A DNA stretch of 64,000 bases, taken from NCBI GenBank assembly GCA_903889895.1, contig CAISYZ010000070.1, positions 34,368 through 98,367 on the forward strand. The letters are read 5' to 3'. The DNA is from an uncultured Verrucomicrobia subdivision 3 bacterium. GTDB lineage: Bacteria > Verrucomicrobiota > Verrucomicrobiia > Limisphaerales > UBA11358. A model generated the notes under the pieces. That model did no database searches. It worked only from the letters and a program-made list of their open reading frames with translations, and was not told the DNA's origin. The position numbers were made by a program, and so were the translations under genes. Below, piece by piece: positions 27,539 to 34,671 of the stretch. How positions within the stretch are numbered: the stretch's first letter is position 1; each line of letters starts with the position of its first letter.

Positions 27539-28495
27539 TTACAGCCCGAACTGGTTTGCCATGATGCCGATGACGCTCAACGGCCCAGTGTCCTCCAAGC
27601 CGTCGGCCGCCTTGTCCAGCTTTTGCAGCGAGAGCTTGGCGCTCTTGTAAAAATCCTGTTCGTTCACCAGTTTGCCGATGGTGCCGTCGCCCTGGTTCAC
27701 CTTCAGCAGAATTGAATTCAGGTTGGTCATCGAACTGGTGGCGGAATTATAAAGTGCCTCGTCCGTCAGCAGCTTGCCGATGGTGCCCTTGCCGGCACGC
27801 GCGTCTTCAACCGTCAGCCTGATGGAGCCAATGGTATCCTGAAGGTTGCTCACGGTGTCCAGCGCCGACGCATAAAGTGTGTCGTCATAGATCAGCTTGC
27901 CGACCGTGCCCTTGCCGCTGCGGATTTCGCCGGAAATATTTTCGATGTTGTCGAGCGTGTTCTTGATGCTTTCCTTTTTGGAGGTGATGACGTCATCCAG
28001 CGCACCGAACATGTGCTTGATCTCGTCGCCGGCAAAATTTTTCGTGATGTTCTGGATACCGCCAGCGGCGTTGTCCAGCTTGGCCATGATGGCGTTCAAA
28101 TCCGTCTGCTCGACACTCGCCAACTCGGTGCCGTCCACGGCCAGCGTGTTGTCCGACGGCGCGCCAAAATCCAGCGCCACAAAATTCTGCCCCATCAGGC
28201 CGGTGAACCGGATGCTGGCGATGCTGCTGGTTTTCACGACCGCCGTCTGGCGCAGTTTTAGCGTCACGCGGACGCGGTTCGTGGTCAGTTCGATACTCTC
28301 GACGCGGCCGATTTCGACGCCGGCCATTTTCACGCGGTCGCCCGGCTTCAAATCCTGCACGGTCTGGAACTGCGCGGAAACCCGGTAACCGTGGCCAAAC
28401 AAATCCACGCTGCCGAGCGTCTCGACGAGCGCCCACGCGGCGATAAGCGTGATGGCGACGAAGAGGCCAAGTTTGGTTTCGAGGGAATTTTTCAT
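27539..28495 (-). CDS. mlaD: MlaD/MCE-family protein with an extended C-terminal repeat region
   Basis: N-terminal TM segment followed by an MCE domain (VKMAGVEIGRVESIEL). Three C-terminal repeats: GKGTVGKLIYDDTLY, GKGTIGKLLTDEALY and GDGTIGKLVNEQDFY. Confidence 0.8.
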   Translation of the reverse strand: MKNSLETKLGLFVAITLIAAWALVETLGSVDLFGHGYRVSAQFQTVQDLKPGDRVKMAGVEIGRVESIELTTNRVRVTLKLRQTAVVKTSSIASIRFTGLMGQNFVALDFGAPSDNTLAVDGTELASVEQTDLNAIMAKLDNAAGGIQNITKNFAGDEIKHMFGALDDVITSKKESIKNTLDNIENISGEIRSGKGTVGKLIYDDTLYASALDTVSNLQDTIGSIRLTVEDARAGKGTIGKLLTDEALYNSATSSMTNLNSILLKVNQGDGTIGKLVNEQDFYKSAKLSLQKLDKAADGLEDTGPLSVIGIMANQFGL

Positions 28496-28507: not shown

Positions 28508-29269
28508 TTATTTTTCTCGTTTAAAATCGGCGTGCAGAAAACTCTGCACCAGCGGGTCGTTGAAATTTTTCACCTCGTCCGGCGTCCCGATGGTCAGGAT
28601 GCGGCCCTCGGCAATCACCGCAATGCGGTCAGCCACGCCGAACGCGAGGTCGCGGTCGTGCGACACCACCAGCGAGGTCACGCCGATGCGGCGCTGTAAA
28701 TCGAGAATCTCGTTGCCGATGACGACGGATGAAACCGGATCCAGCTCGCTCGTCGGTTCATCGTAAAGAATCAACTGTGGCTCGATGACCAGCGCGCGCG
28801 CAATGGCAACGCGCTTTTTCATGCCGCCGGAAAGTTCGGACGGCATCTTGTCCATGACGTTTTTCAGGCCGACGTCCGTCAGCTTTTCGCTGACAATCTT
28901 TTCGATTTCCGCCGGTGATTTCAACCGGTGTTCGGCGAGATACAGACCGACGTTTTCACCGACGGTCAGTGAATTCAGCAGCGCGCCGGATTGAAAAACC
29001 AGCGCCATGCGGTATTTCGCGGCGATTTCCGGCGTGGTGATGGGCTCGCCGTTGATGAGGATTTCGCCCGCATCGGGCTCTTCGAGACCGATGAGATGCT
29101 TGAGCAGGACACTCTTGCCGCTGCCGCTCGGCCCCATGATGACAAAAATTTCGCCGGGCTGGACGGTAAAATCAATACCCTTGAGCACTTCCTGCCCGTC
29201 AAAGCTCTTGCACAGGCCGCGCACCGCGAGGCCAACGCCGCCGGAAATTTTTTCGTTCGCGCCGTTCAT
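28508..29269 (-). CDS. mlaF: ABC transporter ATP-binding protein, MlaF-like
   Basis: Walker A GPSGSGKS, signature LSGGMKKR and Walker B ILYDEPTSELD. Start MNGANEK (cat at 29267-29269) forms an ATGA overlap with the mlaE stop. Confidence 0.85.
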   Translation of the reverse strand: MNGANEKISGGVGLAVRGLCKSFDGQEVLKGIDFTVQPGEIFVIMGPSGSGKSVLLKHLIGLEEPDAGEILINGEPITTPEIAAKYRMALVFQSGALLNSLTVGENVGLYLAEHRLKSPAEIEKIVSEKLTDVGLKNVMDKMPSELSGGMKKRVAIARALVIEPQLILYDEPTSELDPVSSVVIGNEILDLQRRIGVTSLVVSHDRDLAFGVADRIAVIAEGRILTIGTPDEVKNFNDPLVQSFLHADFKREK

Positions 29270-30003
29270 TTCAACAGAAAGCGGGTGAGGATGTAGTCGA
29301 AAATCACGATGAGCACGATGGAGTTCACCACGGCCTTCGTAACCGAGCGCCCGATGCCGCGCGGGCCGCCGATGGTCGTCAGCCCCTGGTGGCACGAAAC
29401 CACGCCGACGATGACCGCGAAGCAAAAGCTCTTGAACACGCCGTTAGCCACGTCCGACAGCTCGACGATGTCCTTCAAGTCGGCGAAGAAAACCTTGAAG
29501 GGAATGTCCATGAGGTGATTGTAATTCGCCACCATCGCACCGCCGAACCAGCCGGTGAGAATGGAAAAAACCACCAGCATCGGCAGCGCCACCGAAATCG
29601 CCAGCACGCGGGGCAGCACAAGGTAATGAACCGGGTTGATGTTCATCGTCCGCAGCGCATCAATTTCCTGATACACGCGCATCGAGCCGATTTCCGCCGC
29701 CATCGCCGAGCCGATGCGGCCGGCGATGAGAATCGCCATCATCACCGGCGCGAGTTCCTTGGCGATGCCGAGGCCGACCACGCCGCCGACGGCATTGGTG
29801 AAGCTGCGCTCCACCAGTGGTGGGCCAAAGTTCAGCGCGATGACGCCACCGATGAAGAATGACAGCATGCAGACCATCAGCAAACTGGCGTTGCCGATTT
29901 CAAAAAACTGTTCTTTCACCTTCTGCCGATGACGCCACGCGAGCGGCAACGCCAGCAGCGTGCGCCAGAACAACAGCATGACTTGTCCGACATTTTCAAA
30001 CAT
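29266..30003 (-). CDS. mlaE: ABC transporter permease, MlaE-like
   Basis: 245-aa polytopic protein with typical MlaE blocks GRIGSAMAAEIGSMRVYQEIDAL and GGPRGIGRSVT. Confidence 0.85.
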   Translation of the reverse strand: MFENVGQVMLLFWRTLLALPLAWRHRQKVKEQFFEIGNASLLMVCMLSFFIGGVIALNFGPPLVERSFTNAVGGVVGLGIAKELAPVMMAILIAGRIGSAMAAEIGSMRVYQEIDALRTMNINPVHYLVLPRVLAISVALPMLVVFSILTGWFGGAMVANYNHLMDIPFKVFFADLKDIVELSDVANGVFKSFCFAVIVGVVSCHQGLTTIGGPRGIGRSVTKAVVNSIVLIVIFDYILTRFLLK

Positions 30004-30012
30004 GGTGCAAAA

Positions 30013-31494
30013 TTATTGGGCGGCCGTCTTTTCGGCGGCCCGGTGGAAATAGAACCACTGCGTCCGGCTGCTTTCCCCATCCAATTGATACTGGAAAAGG
30101 CCGAACAGGAGCGAGACTTTTTTGTGCGCCGGCGCAGTCTCGCGACGATATAAATTCCACAACAGCGAGCGGCTGGAAGCGCCGGTCAGCGGATTGTCCG
30201 CCGCGCGCCAGAGCGACCACAGCGGCGACCAGTTGCGTTCGACGCCGCGATTGTCCGGGGTGAACGGCTCCGCCAACGCGAGCACCTGCAGGCGTTGTTC
30301 GCCGTGCTGGCCAAGATGCCATTCAAAGAACGGCCACATTTCCAGCCGAACTTTTCCCAGTCCGGTCTCGGTGTTTTTTTCCTCGAGTTTGGAATATAAA
30401 TAAAACAGCACCTGCGTCCGCCGCTGGTCCAAAATTCCAGAGTGAAACCAGTGGGACTGCCAGAGTGGCCACAGATACGAATCGGCTTCCTGCGTGGCAT
30501 TGTGTGAGCGGCTGAATAGCGGGAAGACGCGCGTGGTGGTCTTGCCCTCGCCGCGCGCGATGATAATAAACGGCCACGGCATCTGCCATTCGCGATAGTT
30601 TTTTTCGCGATTGTCCAGCCAGGTGAAAAACGGCCAGAGCACGGTGGTGACCTCCAGTTGCGGCGAGCGCGTGGTGGCAAAAAACGGAATCGAGGCGCGA
30701 AATTTCTCCTCGTTGGTCGTGCCCAGGCCGGTGGTCTGCCGCAGATACAGCGGCCAGACGTAAAAGGATTTTTCATGGCCGCCGGTGGTCTCGACGTCAC
30801 CGAAGCCGTTGGTGTGCGTGGTCACGCCCTGCTGTTCGTGCCCGACAAACGGCCAGACCTGCCAGCCGCGCAGATGGTCACCACGGCTGGTCGCGCCAAA
30901 CGGATACAGATAGTTTTCCGTGATGACATCATTTTTGCGCGTCTCGCTGTAAAACGGGAACATCACGAAAAAGATTTCGTCGTGAAACAGGCGGTTTTTG
31001 AGCCGGCCATAAAACGGCATAAGCGCGGTGTAATTTAAATTGGTGTCCGTGGCTCGTTGCTGAAAATACAGCGGGTAGATGGTAACGCGGCTCACCTCCG
31101 TGCCGTCCGCCTGCTGGCCGCCAGCGGTGCTGATGAGCTGGAACAATTGCCAGCGCCGTTCCTCGCCGTAGCGGATGCGCGACAGCAGCGGATACAGGAA
31201 ATCATCCTCGTGCGATTCCACCTCTGGATTTTGGTCGCAGGAAAAGAACGGCGGCAACGCCCAGGTTTTTTCCGAACCGCTTTGCTGCGAATAATAAAAC
31301 GGCCCGCCGGCTTCGGTGCGCCAGCCAGCTTCGAGCGTCAGGGAAAAATGATCAAACGCAAAACCGGCGGAATCCCATTTCTCCTCAGCGGCGGAAACGG
31401 CAAAAGCCAGACCGATGACAAAAGCCATGACCAAAAGGCACCGGTTTTGGCCGGGTTCACCTTTTTTCGGTATCGTTATTGGCTTTCGAATCAT
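30013..31494 (-). CDS. Exported aromatic-Pro repeat protein of unknown function
   Basis: Start MIRKPITIPKK followed by the hydrophobic segment CLLVMAFVIGLAFAVSA. At least 14 copies of an (aromatic/aliphatic)-P-(F/L)-(aromatic) motif: PPFFS, LYPLLS, IYPLYF, LMPFYG, MFPFYS, LYPFGA, VWPFVG, VWPLYL, SIPFFA, LWPFFT, PWPFII, VFPLFS, LWPLWQ and MWPFFE. Sits between the MMPL gene and mlaE. Confidence 0.6.
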   Translation of the reverse strand: MIRKPITIPKKGEPGQNRCLLVMAFVIGLAFAVSAAEEKWDSAGFAFDHFSLTLEAGWRTEAGGPFYYSQQSGSEKTWALPPFFSCDQNPEVESHEDDFLYPLLSRIRYGEERRWQLFQLISTAGGQQADGTEVSRVTIYPLYFQQRATDTNLNYTALMPFYGRLKNRLFHDEIFFVMFPFYSETRKNDVITENYLYPFGATSRGDHLRGWQVWPFVGHEQQGVTTHTNGFGDVETTGGHEKSFYVWPLYLRQTTGLGTTNEEKFRASIPFFATTRSPQLEVTTVLWPFFTWLDNREKNYREWQMPWPFIIIARGEGKTTTRVFPLFSRSHNATQEADSYLWPLWQSHWFHSGILDQRRTQVLFYLYSKLEEKNTETGLGKVRLEMWPFFEWHLGQHGEQRLQVLALAEPFTPDNRGVERNWSPLWSLWRAADNPLTGASSRSLLWNLYRRETAPAHKKVSLLFGLFQYQLDGESSRTQWFYFHRAAEKTAAQ

Positions 31495-31579: not shown

Positions 31580-34336
31580 TTACCTCGGTTCCTCCTGACC
31601 CGGTGCTGGCATTGATTTGTTGGCACTGGGTTTTTCTTTGATCAGCGGAAACCGCCGGCCTACCAAATTCAGCAGCGCCGGCAAAAATGTCAGGCCCGCA
31701 ATCATGCACGTCGCGATGCCCGTGGCCATCATACAGCCAAGGCTATAGATGCCGCGATGCTGCGCAAGCATCAGGCTGCCGAATCCCGCGATGGCCGTCA
31801 ATCCCGACACCAGCACCGCCTTACCCGTGCTGCGCGCCAGAATGCTCGCGGTGCGCTCCTCGGCGTAGCGGTTCAAAATATGGATGCCGTTGGTCACGCC
31901 GATGCCGATGACCAGCGGCAGCGTCATGATGTTCGCCAGGTTCACCGGAATGCCCGCCCAGCCCATGATGCCCGCCAGCCACAGCGTCCCGATGGCGACC
32001 GGAATCAGCGATAAAATCACCGCGACCAAGCTGCGGAAATGGAACAGCACCATTAGCGCGATGGCCGTCAGCGAATACCACGCCGCCTGGATGTAGCTGT
32101 TCTTCAACAGCGTCTCGTATTCCAGAAGCTGCACCGGCGTGCCGGTGACGTTCGGATCCACCGTCCGCAAATCCGCCACGAAACGCTCCTGCGGCGCGCG
32201 TTGCCAGACGTCTTCCTTGGGATAAACCTGGATGAGAAATTTCCCGTTCACGCCGACAAACCGGTGGCGCAGGGCGGGCGGCAAATCGTCCACGCCCAGC
32301 GGCGCCTGGCTGTCCTGCCGCTGCAACAATTCAAACGTGTCGCGCAAATCGCCGAGCAGCATCTGCTGGAACTGCCCCAGCTTCAACGCGTGATCCGCGC
32401 GGACCGTCGCGTCGCCGGCCAGCGCGTCCTTGCGCAGGCTCGTGATGGCTTCGCTCAAATCATTCAATTGCGCGACCAGCACCGGATCGTTGGTGCCGAC
32501 GGCGCGCTCGGCCAGGCCGAGATAGCAGGAAGTGTAGAACAGCGTGCCGCTCAACTGCTCCACGTCCACCGGCTGCGCGTCCGGCGGACTGAATTTCAGC
32601 GCGGCCACCTCGCCTTTAACTTCCTCGATGAGCCGGAGTTTTGCCGGCGACGCCGGCTCCAGAAAATCCCGGTAGAACGGCGGCTGGGTTTCCGCCACCG
32701 TGGGCAGCTGCTCGATTTTTTCCTGCAACGCCACCGCGTTCGTGAGCGAATCGGCGACGACCGCGCCGTAGAGCAGCGACTTTTCCGCGGAGTTGAGCAG
32801 CTTCTGCTCGAAGACCACCGACGACAAACTCGGGCTTTGCATCTTGATGAGGTTGTAATCGAAATAAACCTTCCGCGCCTCCCACGCCGCCGCCGCGCAG
32901 AGCGCCAGCGTGATGCTTAGCACCAGCACCGGCCGTTGCAGCCAGAAGTTTTCCAGCCGCGCCCGCCGGTCGTCCTCGCGGATGGCGTGGTCGAGCACAT
33001 TTTGCCGGCCGCGCAGCAGCAGCACCGGCAGCATCGTCATCATGGGAATGAAACACACCAGCAGGCCGCCGCCGCAGATGATGCCCATTTCCTTGATGCC
33101 CTGAAAATTCGTGAAATACATCGACAGAAACGCGCCGGCCGTCGTCAGTGCGCCGATGAAAATGCCCTGGCCGGTGAACACCATCGCCTTGGTGATGGCT
33201 TCCTGCTCGGTTTTGCCGTGGTGCAATTCCTCCTCGTAGCGCGTGATGAGGTGCACGCCGAAATCAATCGCCAGCCCGATGAGCATCGGCACGAAGGTGA
33301 TGGTCAAAATGTTCAGGTGCCCGATGGTCACCGTCGTGAACGCCAGCGTGTAGCCGAGGCCGACGACGAGGCAGATGGTCGCCTTCACCGGCCGGCCGGT
33401 TTCGTGATAGCCGTAGATGAAAATCAGCGCGCACACCAGCATCGCCACCACGCTGGCCACCGTTGTGTCCCGTTGCGACTGCATCATCTCGTCGTAATCC
33501 AGCACCGGCTCGCCGGTGATGCCCACGTTCACGCCCGGCACCTCGGCCTTGGTCTGCCCCACCAGTTCGCGCAACCGGTCCACCGCGTCGCCGGTCTGGT
33601 CATCGGTCGGCGCGTGCGTGGTGACCACGAAAATTTTCCCGTGCGCAAACGTCAGGTAGCTGTCCAGCACCGCGTCGTCGCTGCCGCCGAGGAGCGTGAC
33701 CACGTTGGGCGACGGCGGCAGGCCGCTGCGATGCAAGGCGTCGCCGGCCTGCGACACGATGCGCGTCAGCGCCGGCAACGATTTCGCCAGCGACCGGTTT
33801 TCCGCGTTGTCCACCTGCGACGCCGAGCGGAAGGCGAGGTTGATCTGGTCAAAGAGCGAGACGAGATTCGTCGTCTGCGCGAACTGCGTGATGAACGGCC
33901 GCGCCGCGCGCAACGTATCGCGCATTTCCACGAGGTTCGTCTCGGTGGCGTAATGCAGCGCCTTGTTGCCCATCATGCCGAGGCTCTGCTGGTAAAACAC
34001 ATCGCAGAAGAGATTTGTCTGCGCCTGCATTTTCGCGGCGATGCGCTCGACGAACTGCCGGTTTTTTTCGAGGTCGTCGCTTTCCACCACCACCACCAAA
34101 TCGTCCGGCTGGGGAAATTCCTTTTCCAGCGCGAGATAGTTCTGGTGGTATTTCTGGTTCGGGCCGACCAGATTGTCGCGGTTCATGTCCGCCTTCAGGA
34201 AGAAGACGGTGTAGAGCACGCAGAGGATGAAGAGCCCCACCTGCGGCCAGAAGAACCAGTGCGGATAACGGCACACCGCCGCCGCCAGCCGCCCCAGCAG
34301 CCGACCCATGACACTGTCTGGACGGAGCGCCTTCAC
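31580..34336 (-). CDS. MMPL/RND-superfamily transporter, HpnN-like
   Basis: 918 aa with two 6-TM bundles, each followed by a large soluble loop. N-terminus reads RLAAAVCRYPHWFFWPQVGLFILCVLY. ATGA overlap with the upstream YbjQ-like gene. Confidence 0.75.
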   Translation of the reverse strand: MKALRPDSVMGRLLGRLAAAVCRYPHWFFWPQVGLFILCVLYTVFFLKADMNRDNLVGPNQKYHQNYLALEKEFPQPDDLVVVVESDDLEKNRQFVERIAAKMQAQTNLFCDVFYQQSLGMMGNKALHYATETNLVEMRDTLRAARPFITQFAQTTNLVSLFDQINLAFRSASQVDNAENRSLAKSLPALTRIVSQAGDALHRSGLPPSPNVVTLLGGSDDAVLDSYLTFAHGKIFVVTTHAPTDDQTGDAVDRLRELVGQTKAEVPGVNVGITGEPVLDYDEMMQSQRDTTVASVVAMLVCALIFIYGYHETGRPVKATICLVVGLGYTLAFTTVTIGHLNILTITFVPMLIGLAIDFGVHLITRYEEELHHGKTEQEAITKAMVFTGQGIFIGALTTAGAFLSMYFTNFQGIKEMGIICGGGLLVCFIPMMTMLPVLLLRGRQNVLDHAIREDDRRARLENFWLQRPVLVLSITLALCAAAAWEARKVYFDYNLIKMQSPSLSSVVFEQKLLNSAEKSLLYGAVVADSLTNAVALQEKIEQLPTVAETQPPFYRDFLEPASPAKLRLIEEVKGEVAALKFSPPDAQPVDVEQLSGTLFYTSCYLGLAERAVGTNDPVLVAQLNDLSEAITSLRKDALAGDATVRADHALKLGQFQQMLLGDLRDTFELLQRQDSQAPLGVDDLPPALRHRFVGVNGKFLIQVYPKEDVWQRAPQERFVADLRTVDPNVTGTPVQLLEYETLLKNSYIQAAWYSLTAIALMVLFHFRSLVAVILSLIPVAIGTLWLAGIMGWAGIPVNLANIMTLPLVIGIGVTNGIHILNRYAEERTASILARSTGKAVLVSGLTAIAGFGSLMLAQHRGIYSLGCMMATGIATCMIAGLTFLPALLNLVGRRFPLIKEKPSANKSMPAPGQEEPR

Positions 34337-34671
34337 GCGGTCTTTTCCACAAACACCGCCGTGCCGTAGCAGAGCACCTCGGTGATGCCCGGCGCGATTT
34401 CCGTGGCGTCATAACGCACGCCGATGACGGCGTTGGCGCCGAGCTGGCCGGCGTGGGTGAGCATGAGGTTAAACGCATCCTCGCGGGCGCGCTCGCAGAG
34501 GTTCGTGTATATGGAAATGTTGCCGCCGAAAATGGCCTGGATGCTCGCGCCGACGTTGCCGATGACCGACCGCGAACGCACGATGATGCCGCGCACCACG
34601 CCATAGGACTTGGTGATGTGAAAACCCGGCAGGTCAAACGTCGTCGTCGTCAGCGGATGGGTCATACTCAT
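34333..34671 (-). CDS. YbjQ/UPF0145 family protein
   Basis: The internal start MSMTHPLTTTTFDLPGFHITKSYGVVRGIIVRSRS...AVIGVRYDATEI gives 112 aa typical of UPF0145. The upstream 120 codons of the track ORF are Arg/Pro-rich and not protein-like. Confidence 0.75.
   Translation of the reverse strand: MSMTHPLTTTTFDLPGFHITKSYGVVRGIIVRSRSVIGNVGASIQAIFGGNISIYTNLCERAREDAFNLMLTHAGQLGANAVIGVRYDATEIAPGITEVLCYGTAVFVEKTA

Follow-up and report, generated by a model that had tools for sequence, protein, structure and literature searches.

A conserved family of exported beta-hairpin-repeat proteins encoded beside MlaEFD-type lipid-transport genes, with a probable role as a transporter accessory

In a stretch of 64,000 nucleotides from an uncultured Verrucomicrobia subdivision 3 bacterium of the Limisphaerales (contig CAISYZ010000070.1 of assembly GCA_903889895.1, positions 34,368 to 98,367 of the forward strand; the whole stretch is hereafter the window), we identified a gene, here termed X, whose product is a 493-residue exported protein built of regularly repeated beta-hairpins. 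X represents a real, conserved and unnamed protein family, and its gene is found in two phyla next to those for an MlaE permease, an MlaF ATPase and an MCE protein of the MlaD type. From this linkage we infer that X probably adds a new accessory to a lipid transporter of a known kind.

Good descriptions of lipid traffic to and from the outer membrane exist for only a few Proteobacteria. Phylogenomic analysis indicates that most other diderms, the Planctomycetes-Verrucomicrobia-Chlamydiae (PVC) group included, have only a "minimal" MlaEFD core, which leaves the outer-membrane end of the system open (PMC10665443). The X family, which is large, conserved and single-copy and whose genes lie next to those of such transporters in two phyla or more, offers a concrete candidate for the missing piece, and makes the question of the outer-membrane end of MlaEFD testable in cultivable relatives such as Desulfuromonas versatilis and Geoalkalibacter.

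The X family and its linkage to mlaEFD

Within the window X lies in an operon of six genes on the minus strand, transcribed in the order YbjQ-like protein, HpnN-like RND transporter, X, MlaE, MlaF and MlaD:

34333..34671, minus strand: YbjQ-like small protein, first gene of the Limisphaerales-type operon (PF01906, E = 3.2e-29)
31580..34336, minus strand: HpnN-like RND (MMPL/HAE3) transporter, directly upstream of X (PF03176, E = 1.2e-48; TIGR03480)
30013..31494, minus strand: gene X, 493-aa exported beta-hairpin-repeat protein (open reading frame and translation, AlphaFold2 model, homologue family)
29266..30003, minus strand: MlaE-type permease (PF02405, E = 4.9e-70; TIGR00056 above its cutoff)
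28508..29269, minus strand: MlaF-type ABC ATPase (PF00005, E = 7.1e-35; translation of the open reading frame)
27539..28495, minus strand: long MlaD/MCE protein of 318 aa, with a transmembrane helix, an MCE domain and a C-terminal extension of about 185 residues (PF02470, E = 4e-20; AlphaFold2 model)

The minus-strand frame at 30013-31494 encodes 493 aa with the N-terminus MIRKPITIPKKGEPGQNRCLLVMAFVIGLAFAVSAAEE, whereas a plus-strand reading of the same interval was rejected, its translation being full of stops. The ATG at 31494 is the likely start of X, because homologues align from there and a longer frame, opening with GTG at 31626, would extend into the end of the RND gene that lies upstream. 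The junction sequence places the start of mlaE 9 nucleotides past the stop of X, and the likely start of mlaF, judged from the position of MNGANEK, is an ATG at 29269 that overlaps the stop of mlaE.

To examine how far this arrangement is conserved we compared gene neighborhoods at increasing distance from the window. Eighty related loci, all but one labelled Limisphaerales, Verrucomicrobia or unclassified, were found on genome contigs at 53-80% identity. The full six-gene order is present in 67 of these 80 Limisphaerales-type loci, and in nearly all the others a contig end breaks it off. The genes for MlaE, MlaF and MlaD come immediately after X in 72 of the 80. Of the remaining eight, six are truncated or interrupted, and in two no MlaE lies within 8 kb downstream. 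The RND gene lies upstream of X throughout, and the YbjQ-like gene occupies its position in 71, the nine loci without it beginning at or near a contig start. In each of six distant annotated loci, from D. versatilis, Geoalkalibacter halelectricus, a metagenome-assembled genome of Opitutaceae and three further assemblies, X is again followed by MlaE, an ABC ATPase and MlaD, and in none of the six does an RND gene stand beside it. The MlaD proteins of these distant loci have 328-362 aa and match PF28544 (Helical_needle), strongly in four cases and weakly or faintly in two.

We further hand-picked 60 family hits from samples of two phyla, mostly full-length and on contigs long enough to display neighbors. 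X precedes MlaE (followed by MlaF and MlaD) in 36 of the 60, follows MlaD in a permuted MlaF-MlaD-X order in 13, at 21-391 nucleotides from the end of the MlaD alignment, and is unlinked in 11. In both gene orders X is adjacent to the mla genes and on the same strand, and long MCE frames of about 340-390 aa are encoded elsewhere in all ten of the unlinked genomes that were tested. No RND gene was seen in these 60 loci, with just 1.5 kb upstream of X covered, so that this set is uninformative on RND.

The conserved unit is hence X together with MlaEFD, which RND and YbjQ join only among the Limisphaerales-type loci examined. Given that the adjacency of X and MlaEFD survives divergence to 22-33% identity, a separation into two phyla and a change of gene order, it is strong evidence of a functional unit, and X has the property that marks an accessory subunit of an MCE/MlaFED system, namely conserved operon linkage with the MlaE permease, the MlaF ATPase and the MCE protein. 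A preliminary description of this DNA, made from the letters alone, had named X the most likely novel component of a combined MMPL/Mla system and had proposed conserved linkage with genes of either kind as a check. The Mla part of this proposal stands: since X keeps its linkage to mlaE-mlaF-mlaD in both phyla and despite the change in gene order, it is very probably a component of the lipid-transport system. The MMPL part is narrower than was proposed, for linkage to the RND gene is confined to the 80 Limisphaerales-type loci and is seen in none of the six distant ones.

Profile hidden Markov model searches recovered no Pfam-A or NCBIfam family that matches X at E <= 0.1, sequence searches of the PDB with X alone or with a profile of 144 sequences gave no match, and six distant homologues had no meaningful Pfam match at E <= 1. 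The preliminary description had likewise been able to assign no family, and X indeed emerges as a regular beta repeat protein lacking any match in Pfam, NCBIfam or PDB sequences. The family comprises 1,139 clusters at 50% identity, and among 8,000 candidates scored more than 3,000 clusters at 90% identity pass E <= 0.001; all source names seen for its members are "hypothetical" or "uncharacterized". Named carriers include Limisphaerales and Opitutaceae (Verrucomicrobiota), D. versatilis, Geoalkalibacter and Trichloromonas. A match is present in 147 of 301 sampled genomes of Verrucomicrobiota and in 57 of 151 sampled genomes of the phylum of D. versatilis, with X being single copy in most genomes of the two samples. 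Fusion of X to larger proteins was considered and rejected: the open frames of 999-1883 aa that reach upstream in GC-rich relatives (loci L232-L236), and that mimic fusions in six-frame searches, consist there of Arg/Gly/Pro-rich out-of-frame junk, and a normal signal peptide directly precedes the X domain within them.

Several lineage-specific arrangements were seen beside the common one. The permuted order, (MlaE)-MlaF-MlaD-X, belongs to part of the phylum of D. versatilis (L134-L143, L148, L150, L151), where the cassette has been rearranged with its genes still adjacent. Certain small genomes of 1.6-1.8 Mb (L144-L146) have an unlinked X flanked by coaD-like and hemerythrin-like genes, with a long MCE gene elsewhere. 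In D. versatilis and G. halelectricus a TPR-like protein of about 320 aa is encoded directly upstream of X on the same strand (L082, 7822-8790; L084, 8058-9020), and may be a further lineage-specific accessory.

Export signal, repeat motif and predicted fold of X

The features recognized within the gene are:

31390..31494, minus strand: signal peptide, residues 1-35, with a basic n-region, the h-region LLVMAFVIGLAFAV and the cleavage motif VSA/AE (sequence; helix at 16-35 followed by a linker in the AlphaFold2 model)
30034..31353, minus strand: beta-hairpin repeat domain, residues 48-487, with 45 strands in about 23 hairpins (DSSP of the AlphaFold2 model, mapping of motifs to loops, hydropathy, coevolution)
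30211..30282, minus strand: conserved non-repeat insert, residues 405-428 (LALAEPFTPDNRGVERNWSPLWSL; model helices 416-421 and 423-426; family consensus LSPLE.FFP.NE.IR..WSPLFALYR)

The N-terminus of X is a Sec signal of the signal-peptidase-I type (VSA|AEE) without a lipobox. Signals of this type are present in nearly all homologues examined and a classical lipobox in only 2 of 73 diverse representatives, which points to lipoproteins being few in the family. Export, which had been proposed from the signal-like N-terminus, is thus backed by X and its homologues alike. The Limisphaerales-type copies (L002-L081; X residues 1-11, window 31465-31494, minus strand) share a conserved n-region motif, x-P/K-I/V-T-I-T-K-K, ahead of the hydrophobic signal core, and this motif is missing from the aligned Opitutaceae-type and Desulfuromonas-type copies.

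Every core that the preliminary description had listed, from PPFFS to MWPFFE, is present in the translation, as are the degenerate SPLWSLW, LLWNLY and LLFGLF. When a hydrophobic flank is defined as F, W, Y, L, I, M or V on both sides, 14 of the 24 prolines of mature X have a hydrophobic-Pro-hydrophobic context, besides the degenerate C-terminal copies; composition-preserving shuffles yield 2.7 +/- 1.5 such cores, and the highest count among 20,000 of them is 10, short of 14. The count of about 15 aromatic-Pro-aromatic repeats given earlier is thereby upheld. Cores follow one another mostly at 17-22 residues, and at 33-45 where an extra hairpin is inserted. Even where homologues share no more than 22-33% identity, their alignments show the repeat prolines as invariant or almost invariant, and the repeat is for this reason a conserved feature and no chance pattern.

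An AlphaFold2 model built on an alignment of 144 sequences has a mean predicted local confidence (pLDDT) of 90.9 and a predicted template-modelling score (pTM) of 0.76. Beyond the signal helix at 16-35, DSSP assigns 45 beta-strands of 4-8 residues within residues 48-487. Mapping of the motifs on this model revealed a strict alternation of strand, two-residue turn, strand and a connector of 3-4 residues that holds the hydrophobic-Pro-hydrophobic motif; all Pro motifs therefore come to lie on one edge of the hairpin meander, and the two-residue turns on the opposite one. The only hydropathy peaks fall within two residues of a proline (positions -2 to +2), the remainder of every hairpin being rich in Thr, Arg, Glu, Lys and Gly. 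Mean strand length is 6.0 residues, and the longest strands have 8. A face whose mean Kyte-Doolittle (KD) value exceeds 1.0 is present in only 11 of the 45 strands, and the more hydrophobic face has a mean KD of 0.09. The insert at 405-428 is the sole helical element of the repeat domain and its most conserved non-repeat stretch. The aromatic edge could touch lipid tails or the membrane interface, or could simply act as a spine that stabilizes the single-layer sheet.

A Foldseek search with the model, as the preliminary description had advised, had a divided outcome, with local matches to hairpin arrays and no global analogue either in the PDB (best TM-score normalized to the query, TMq, 0.19) or in BFVD (TM <= 0.26 overall). 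On the evidence of the model, then, X has a fold without a solved analogue. The high-probability local matches (up to 1.0) are to single-layer hairpin arrays, namely engineered OspA, MORN-repeat proteins, teneurin YD shells and the ApoB100 belt. With MORN arrays and engineered OspA sheets X shares tandem hairpins of about 20 residues that form a continuous antiparallel sheet largely exposed to solvent on both faces. This likeness is structural only: TM-scores do not exceed 0.26, X is periplasmic and bacterial, and where the MORN motif is YxGxW...GxG, that of X is hydrophobic-aromatic-Pro-aromatic and sits in the connector between hairpins. A MORN repeat protein was accordingly rejected as an identity for X, with neither PF02493 nor PF07661 matching and the 23-residue YxGxW..GxG repeat differing from its motif. 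An RHS/YD-repeat shell was set aside likewise, there being no Pfam match (by the criterion of PF05593) and a TMq of only 0.13-0.17 to the teneurin YD shell. The beta-flower fold consists of 8-12 short strands in a shallow barrel around a hydrophobic helix (PMC10584680); membership of X in this beta-flower/Tubby-like clan (CL0395; PF21784-6) was rejected on the lack of a Pfam match, its 45 strands against 8-12 and the absence of any Tubby-like structure from the top 50 PDB matches.

The preliminary description had offered a solenoid, propeller or beta-barrel as alternatives. The regular beta repeat that underlies this suggestion is confirmed; Foldseek gives no indication of a classical propeller or parallel solenoid, and strand length and hydropathy contradict a transmembrane barrel. 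Propellers are built of four-stranded blades with hydrophobic faces between the blades. Propeller-containing chains do occur among the weak Foldseek hits (TM <= 0.19), and the strand faces of X are mostly polar; Pfam profiles of the propeller families WD40, PQQ, YWTD and Kelch match neither X nor the six distant homologues.

Our own mean-field direct coupling analysis (DCA) of the family, carried out at an effective sequence number (Meff) of 238 and then of 347 (up to 502 sequences), supports antiparallel pairing of neighboring strands and contacts between successive Pro loops. The contact band is confined to unit offsets 0-2, with no consistent long-range band, and the map is for this reason best fitted by an elongated repeat array. 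A few strong isolated long-range couplings, 85-421 (z = 7.9) and 306-447 (z = 7.0) among them, would also allow for a partly back-folded or closed shape, and hints of closure between the N- and C-terminus are weak. An apparent coupling hub at 405-426, in the insert, is only marginally enriched: pairs of this plug with other positions are 1.57-fold enriched (p = 0.02), and core-plug pairs show no enrichment. Long-range covariation between residues flanking the prolines of distant repeats is enriched 3.2-fold (p = 8e-5), which could reflect concerted clade-wide residue preferences instead of contacts.

Possible roles of X in the transport of envelope lipids

We consider it reasonably probable that X is a dedicated accessory, on the periplasmic or outer-membrane side, of a needle-type MCE lipid transporter. 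The protein would be exported by Sec and remain soluble or peripherally associated with a membrane, its roughly 23 hairpins forming one continuous antiparallel meander in which the invariant hydrophobic-Pro-hydrophobic connectors would line up as a continuous aromatic ladder along one edge of an otherwise polar sheet. Its partners would be the MlaE permease, the MlaF ATPase and the long MlaD with a helical C-terminal extension. X is envisaged at the far end of this extension, close to the outer membrane, and its aromatic edge would there face the membrane interface. In this place it might dock or stabilize the MlaD tip and aid the hand-off of lipid.

Such a role would be analogous, and not homologous, to that of the PqiC-like lipoproteins of Pqi-type systems. 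These proteins, of Escherichia coli PqiABC, Pseudomonas aeruginosa PA3211-PA3214 and Brucella abortus MpcEFDA, are, like X, envelope accessories encoded in the operon of an MCE protein with a helical periplasmic extension, and are thought to act at the outer-membrane end of the MCE needle (PMC10897342, PMC13631591, PMC12436622). The mpcEFDA operon even has the same four-gene composition as the X cassette, i.e. permease, ATPase, MCE protein and accessory. Yet no sequence relationship joins the two: PF03886 is undetected in X, and an all-beta hairpin-repeat protein of 493 aa stands against a PF03886 domain of about 160 residues that oligomerizes into a toroid. Moreover, PqiC-like proteins are lipoproteins, which X usually is not, and genomes bearing X can hold a separate PF03886 gene. 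X as a PqiC-like (ABC_trans_aux) lipoprotein was accordingly rejected, lacking both the PF03886 match and a lipobox, as was X as MlaA or MlaC, for it has no PF04333 or PF05494 domain.

Several observations weigh against the proposed accessory role. Gene linkage is the only line of evidence behind the functional assignment, and X is unlinked in the 11 picked loci mentioned above. The extension of the MlaD encoded in the window is modelled at low confidence: AlphaFold2 renders its transmembrane helix (5-27) and MCE domain (36-128) confidently and residues 134-318 as helical with pLDDT <50, as is to be expected when an oligomeric needle is modelled as a monomer. An estimate of needle length from this model was dropped, the C-terminal 185 residues having pLDDT <50. 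Likewise, the model of X is compatible with an aromatic edge that may be exposed or buried, and with either an extended ribbon or a closed assembly. Finally, other accessory proteins coexist with X. All seven nearly complete X-bearing genomes of Verrucomicrobiota have a PqiC-like (PF03886) gene elsewhere, and three X-bearing genomes from the Desulfuromonas phylum hold MlaA and MlaC elsewhere, together with a PF03886 gene. Since some X-bearing genomes thus keep MlaA, MlaC or PqiC-like genes, X as a plain one-for-one substitute for these was rejected as a general rule. MlaA and MlaC were nonetheless not found in any of these seven nearly complete genomes, which belong to the same class as the genome of the window, and the genome of the window, which is 76% complete, has no MlaA, MlaC or PF03886 match.

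The shape of X bears on two further explanations, both of which would give it a direct part in lipid passage. One of them, which we regard as unlikely, holds that X is a hydrophobic rail or sheath spanning the periplasm, whose aromatic edge gives or shields a continuous lipid track as in bridge-type lipid transporters. The near-diagonal coevolution band, the local matches to elongated single-layer arrays such as engineered OspA, MORN arrays and the ApoB100 belt, and the continuity of the hydrophobic stripe along one edge are what such a rail would predict. On the other hand, a stripe on one edge makes no groove, the pTM is high for a long flexible ribbon, the isolated couplings 85-421 and 306-447 hint at back-folding, and the MCE needle is itself thought to be the conduit (PMC10665443). 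The other explanation, for which we see hardly any room, is an integral outer-membrane beta-barrel inserted by BAM that serves as exit or entry for lipids. In that case X would correspond, in detached form, to chloroplast TGD4 or to the barrel at the C-terminus of Veillonella MlaD. The comparison with Veillonella parvula MlaEFD is instructive, as there too MlaA and MlaC are lacking, and the envelope is proposed to be bridged by a long helical MlaD, which requires beta-structure at its far end (PMC10665443). PVC MlaD proteins have no such fused barrel (PMC10665443), X is all-beta and exported, and a search for a C-terminal beta-signal located a conserved last strand resembling WRLFLFDF, with an aromatic final residue (F or W) in a few clades (P0368, ...FFWNSF; P0291, ...FLWTEW). 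The barrel of Veillonella is fused to the C-terminus of MlaD, and X is a separate gene product. Membrane-spanning strands in outer-membrane barrels, those of the TGD4/LptD kind included, need about 9 or more residues and an alternating hydrophobic side that faces the lipid; the strands of X are too short and too polar for this, by which a transmembrane barrel is contradicted. In addition, most homologues carry a polar tail of 10-15 residues after the last strand, and the matches to VDAC and Tom40 are weak (TM 0.10-0.20).

The gene context is the source of two other alternatives. X might mainly partner the HpnN-like RND pump in this lineage, as a periplasmic or outer-membrane hopanoid acceptor and counterpart of proteobacterial HpnM, HpnS and HpnT. 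Its position directly between the hpnN-like gene and mlaE, kept in the 80 Limisphaerales-type loci, invites this idea, as does a squalene-hopene cyclase encoded in the genome of the window (PF13243, 449 bits, a 667-aa frame; G000:C253:16949-17905, L087), from which the organism probably makes hopanoids, in keeping with an HpnN-like pump in the operon. The linkage also parallels that of the Mla-like HpnM and HpnS beside hpnN in Proteobacteria (PMC12324291): HpnM, HpnS and HpnT are candidate factors of hopanoid trafficking, periplasmic or outer-membrane accessories recognized by microsynteny next to an HpnN-type RND protein, with ties to Mla-type proteins (PMC12324291). They are, however, MlaC-like, MlaA-like or lipocalin-like, X being none of these, and they are tied to HpnN where X is linked primarily to MlaEFD and to HpnN only in the Limisphaerales-type loci. 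A main role with the pump is contradicted by the six distant loci that lack a neighboring RND gene, and the RND protein scores 556.6 bits against the HpnN model TIGR03480, below the cutoff of 751.85; we judge it very unlikely. It is also improbable, in our estimate, that X is no transporter component at all, and instead a periplasmic structural, adhesive or wall-binding repeat protein, or an assembly or regulatory factor, that is co-transcribed with mlaEFD. Its local structural likeness to MORN-like and cell-wall-binding-type hairpin arrays (PMC10584680) would suit such a function, and the 11 unlinked loci are consistent with it. Against this stand the persistence of the adjacency at 22-33% identity, across two phyla and through permutation of the gene order, the single-copy state of X in most genomes and the MCE genes in all ten unlinked genomes tested.

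If X is an accessory of the MCE transporter as we favor, its joining with the HpnN-like RND and YbjQ genes into one operon in the Limisphaerales-type genomes suggests that hopanoids and phospholipids travel to the outer membrane in a co-ordinated way, and links the transport of the two kinds of lipid. More speculatively, and with considerable doubt, X could found an undescribed fold and family that, in many diderms other than Proteobacteria, provides the outer end of an ancestral "minimal" MlaEFD lipid bridge; in Limisphaerales-type genomes it would also serve the HpnN-like pump as a shared docking station for phospholipids and hopanoids. Grasekamp et al. noted that MlaD of the PVC group has no fused outer-membrane barrel of the kind known from Veillonella, and considered that partner proteins yet to be identified might exist (PMC10665443). 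X, which is not described there, would fill this gap.

Further MCE features in the window and its genome

The genome of the window encodes a second MCE/MlaD-type gene (G000:C210:6967-7197, L086; an open frame of 323 aa). As X is single copy in this genome, only one of the two MCE systems has it. In the extension of the MlaD encoded next to X, residues ~194-300, which follow the MCE domain, comprise three modules of the form G-x-G-T-[IV]-G-K-L...Y. The same extension in the Desulfuromonas orthologue has a sub-threshold match to the 5-fold beta-flower family PF21785, at 22.6 bits against a cutoff of 38.

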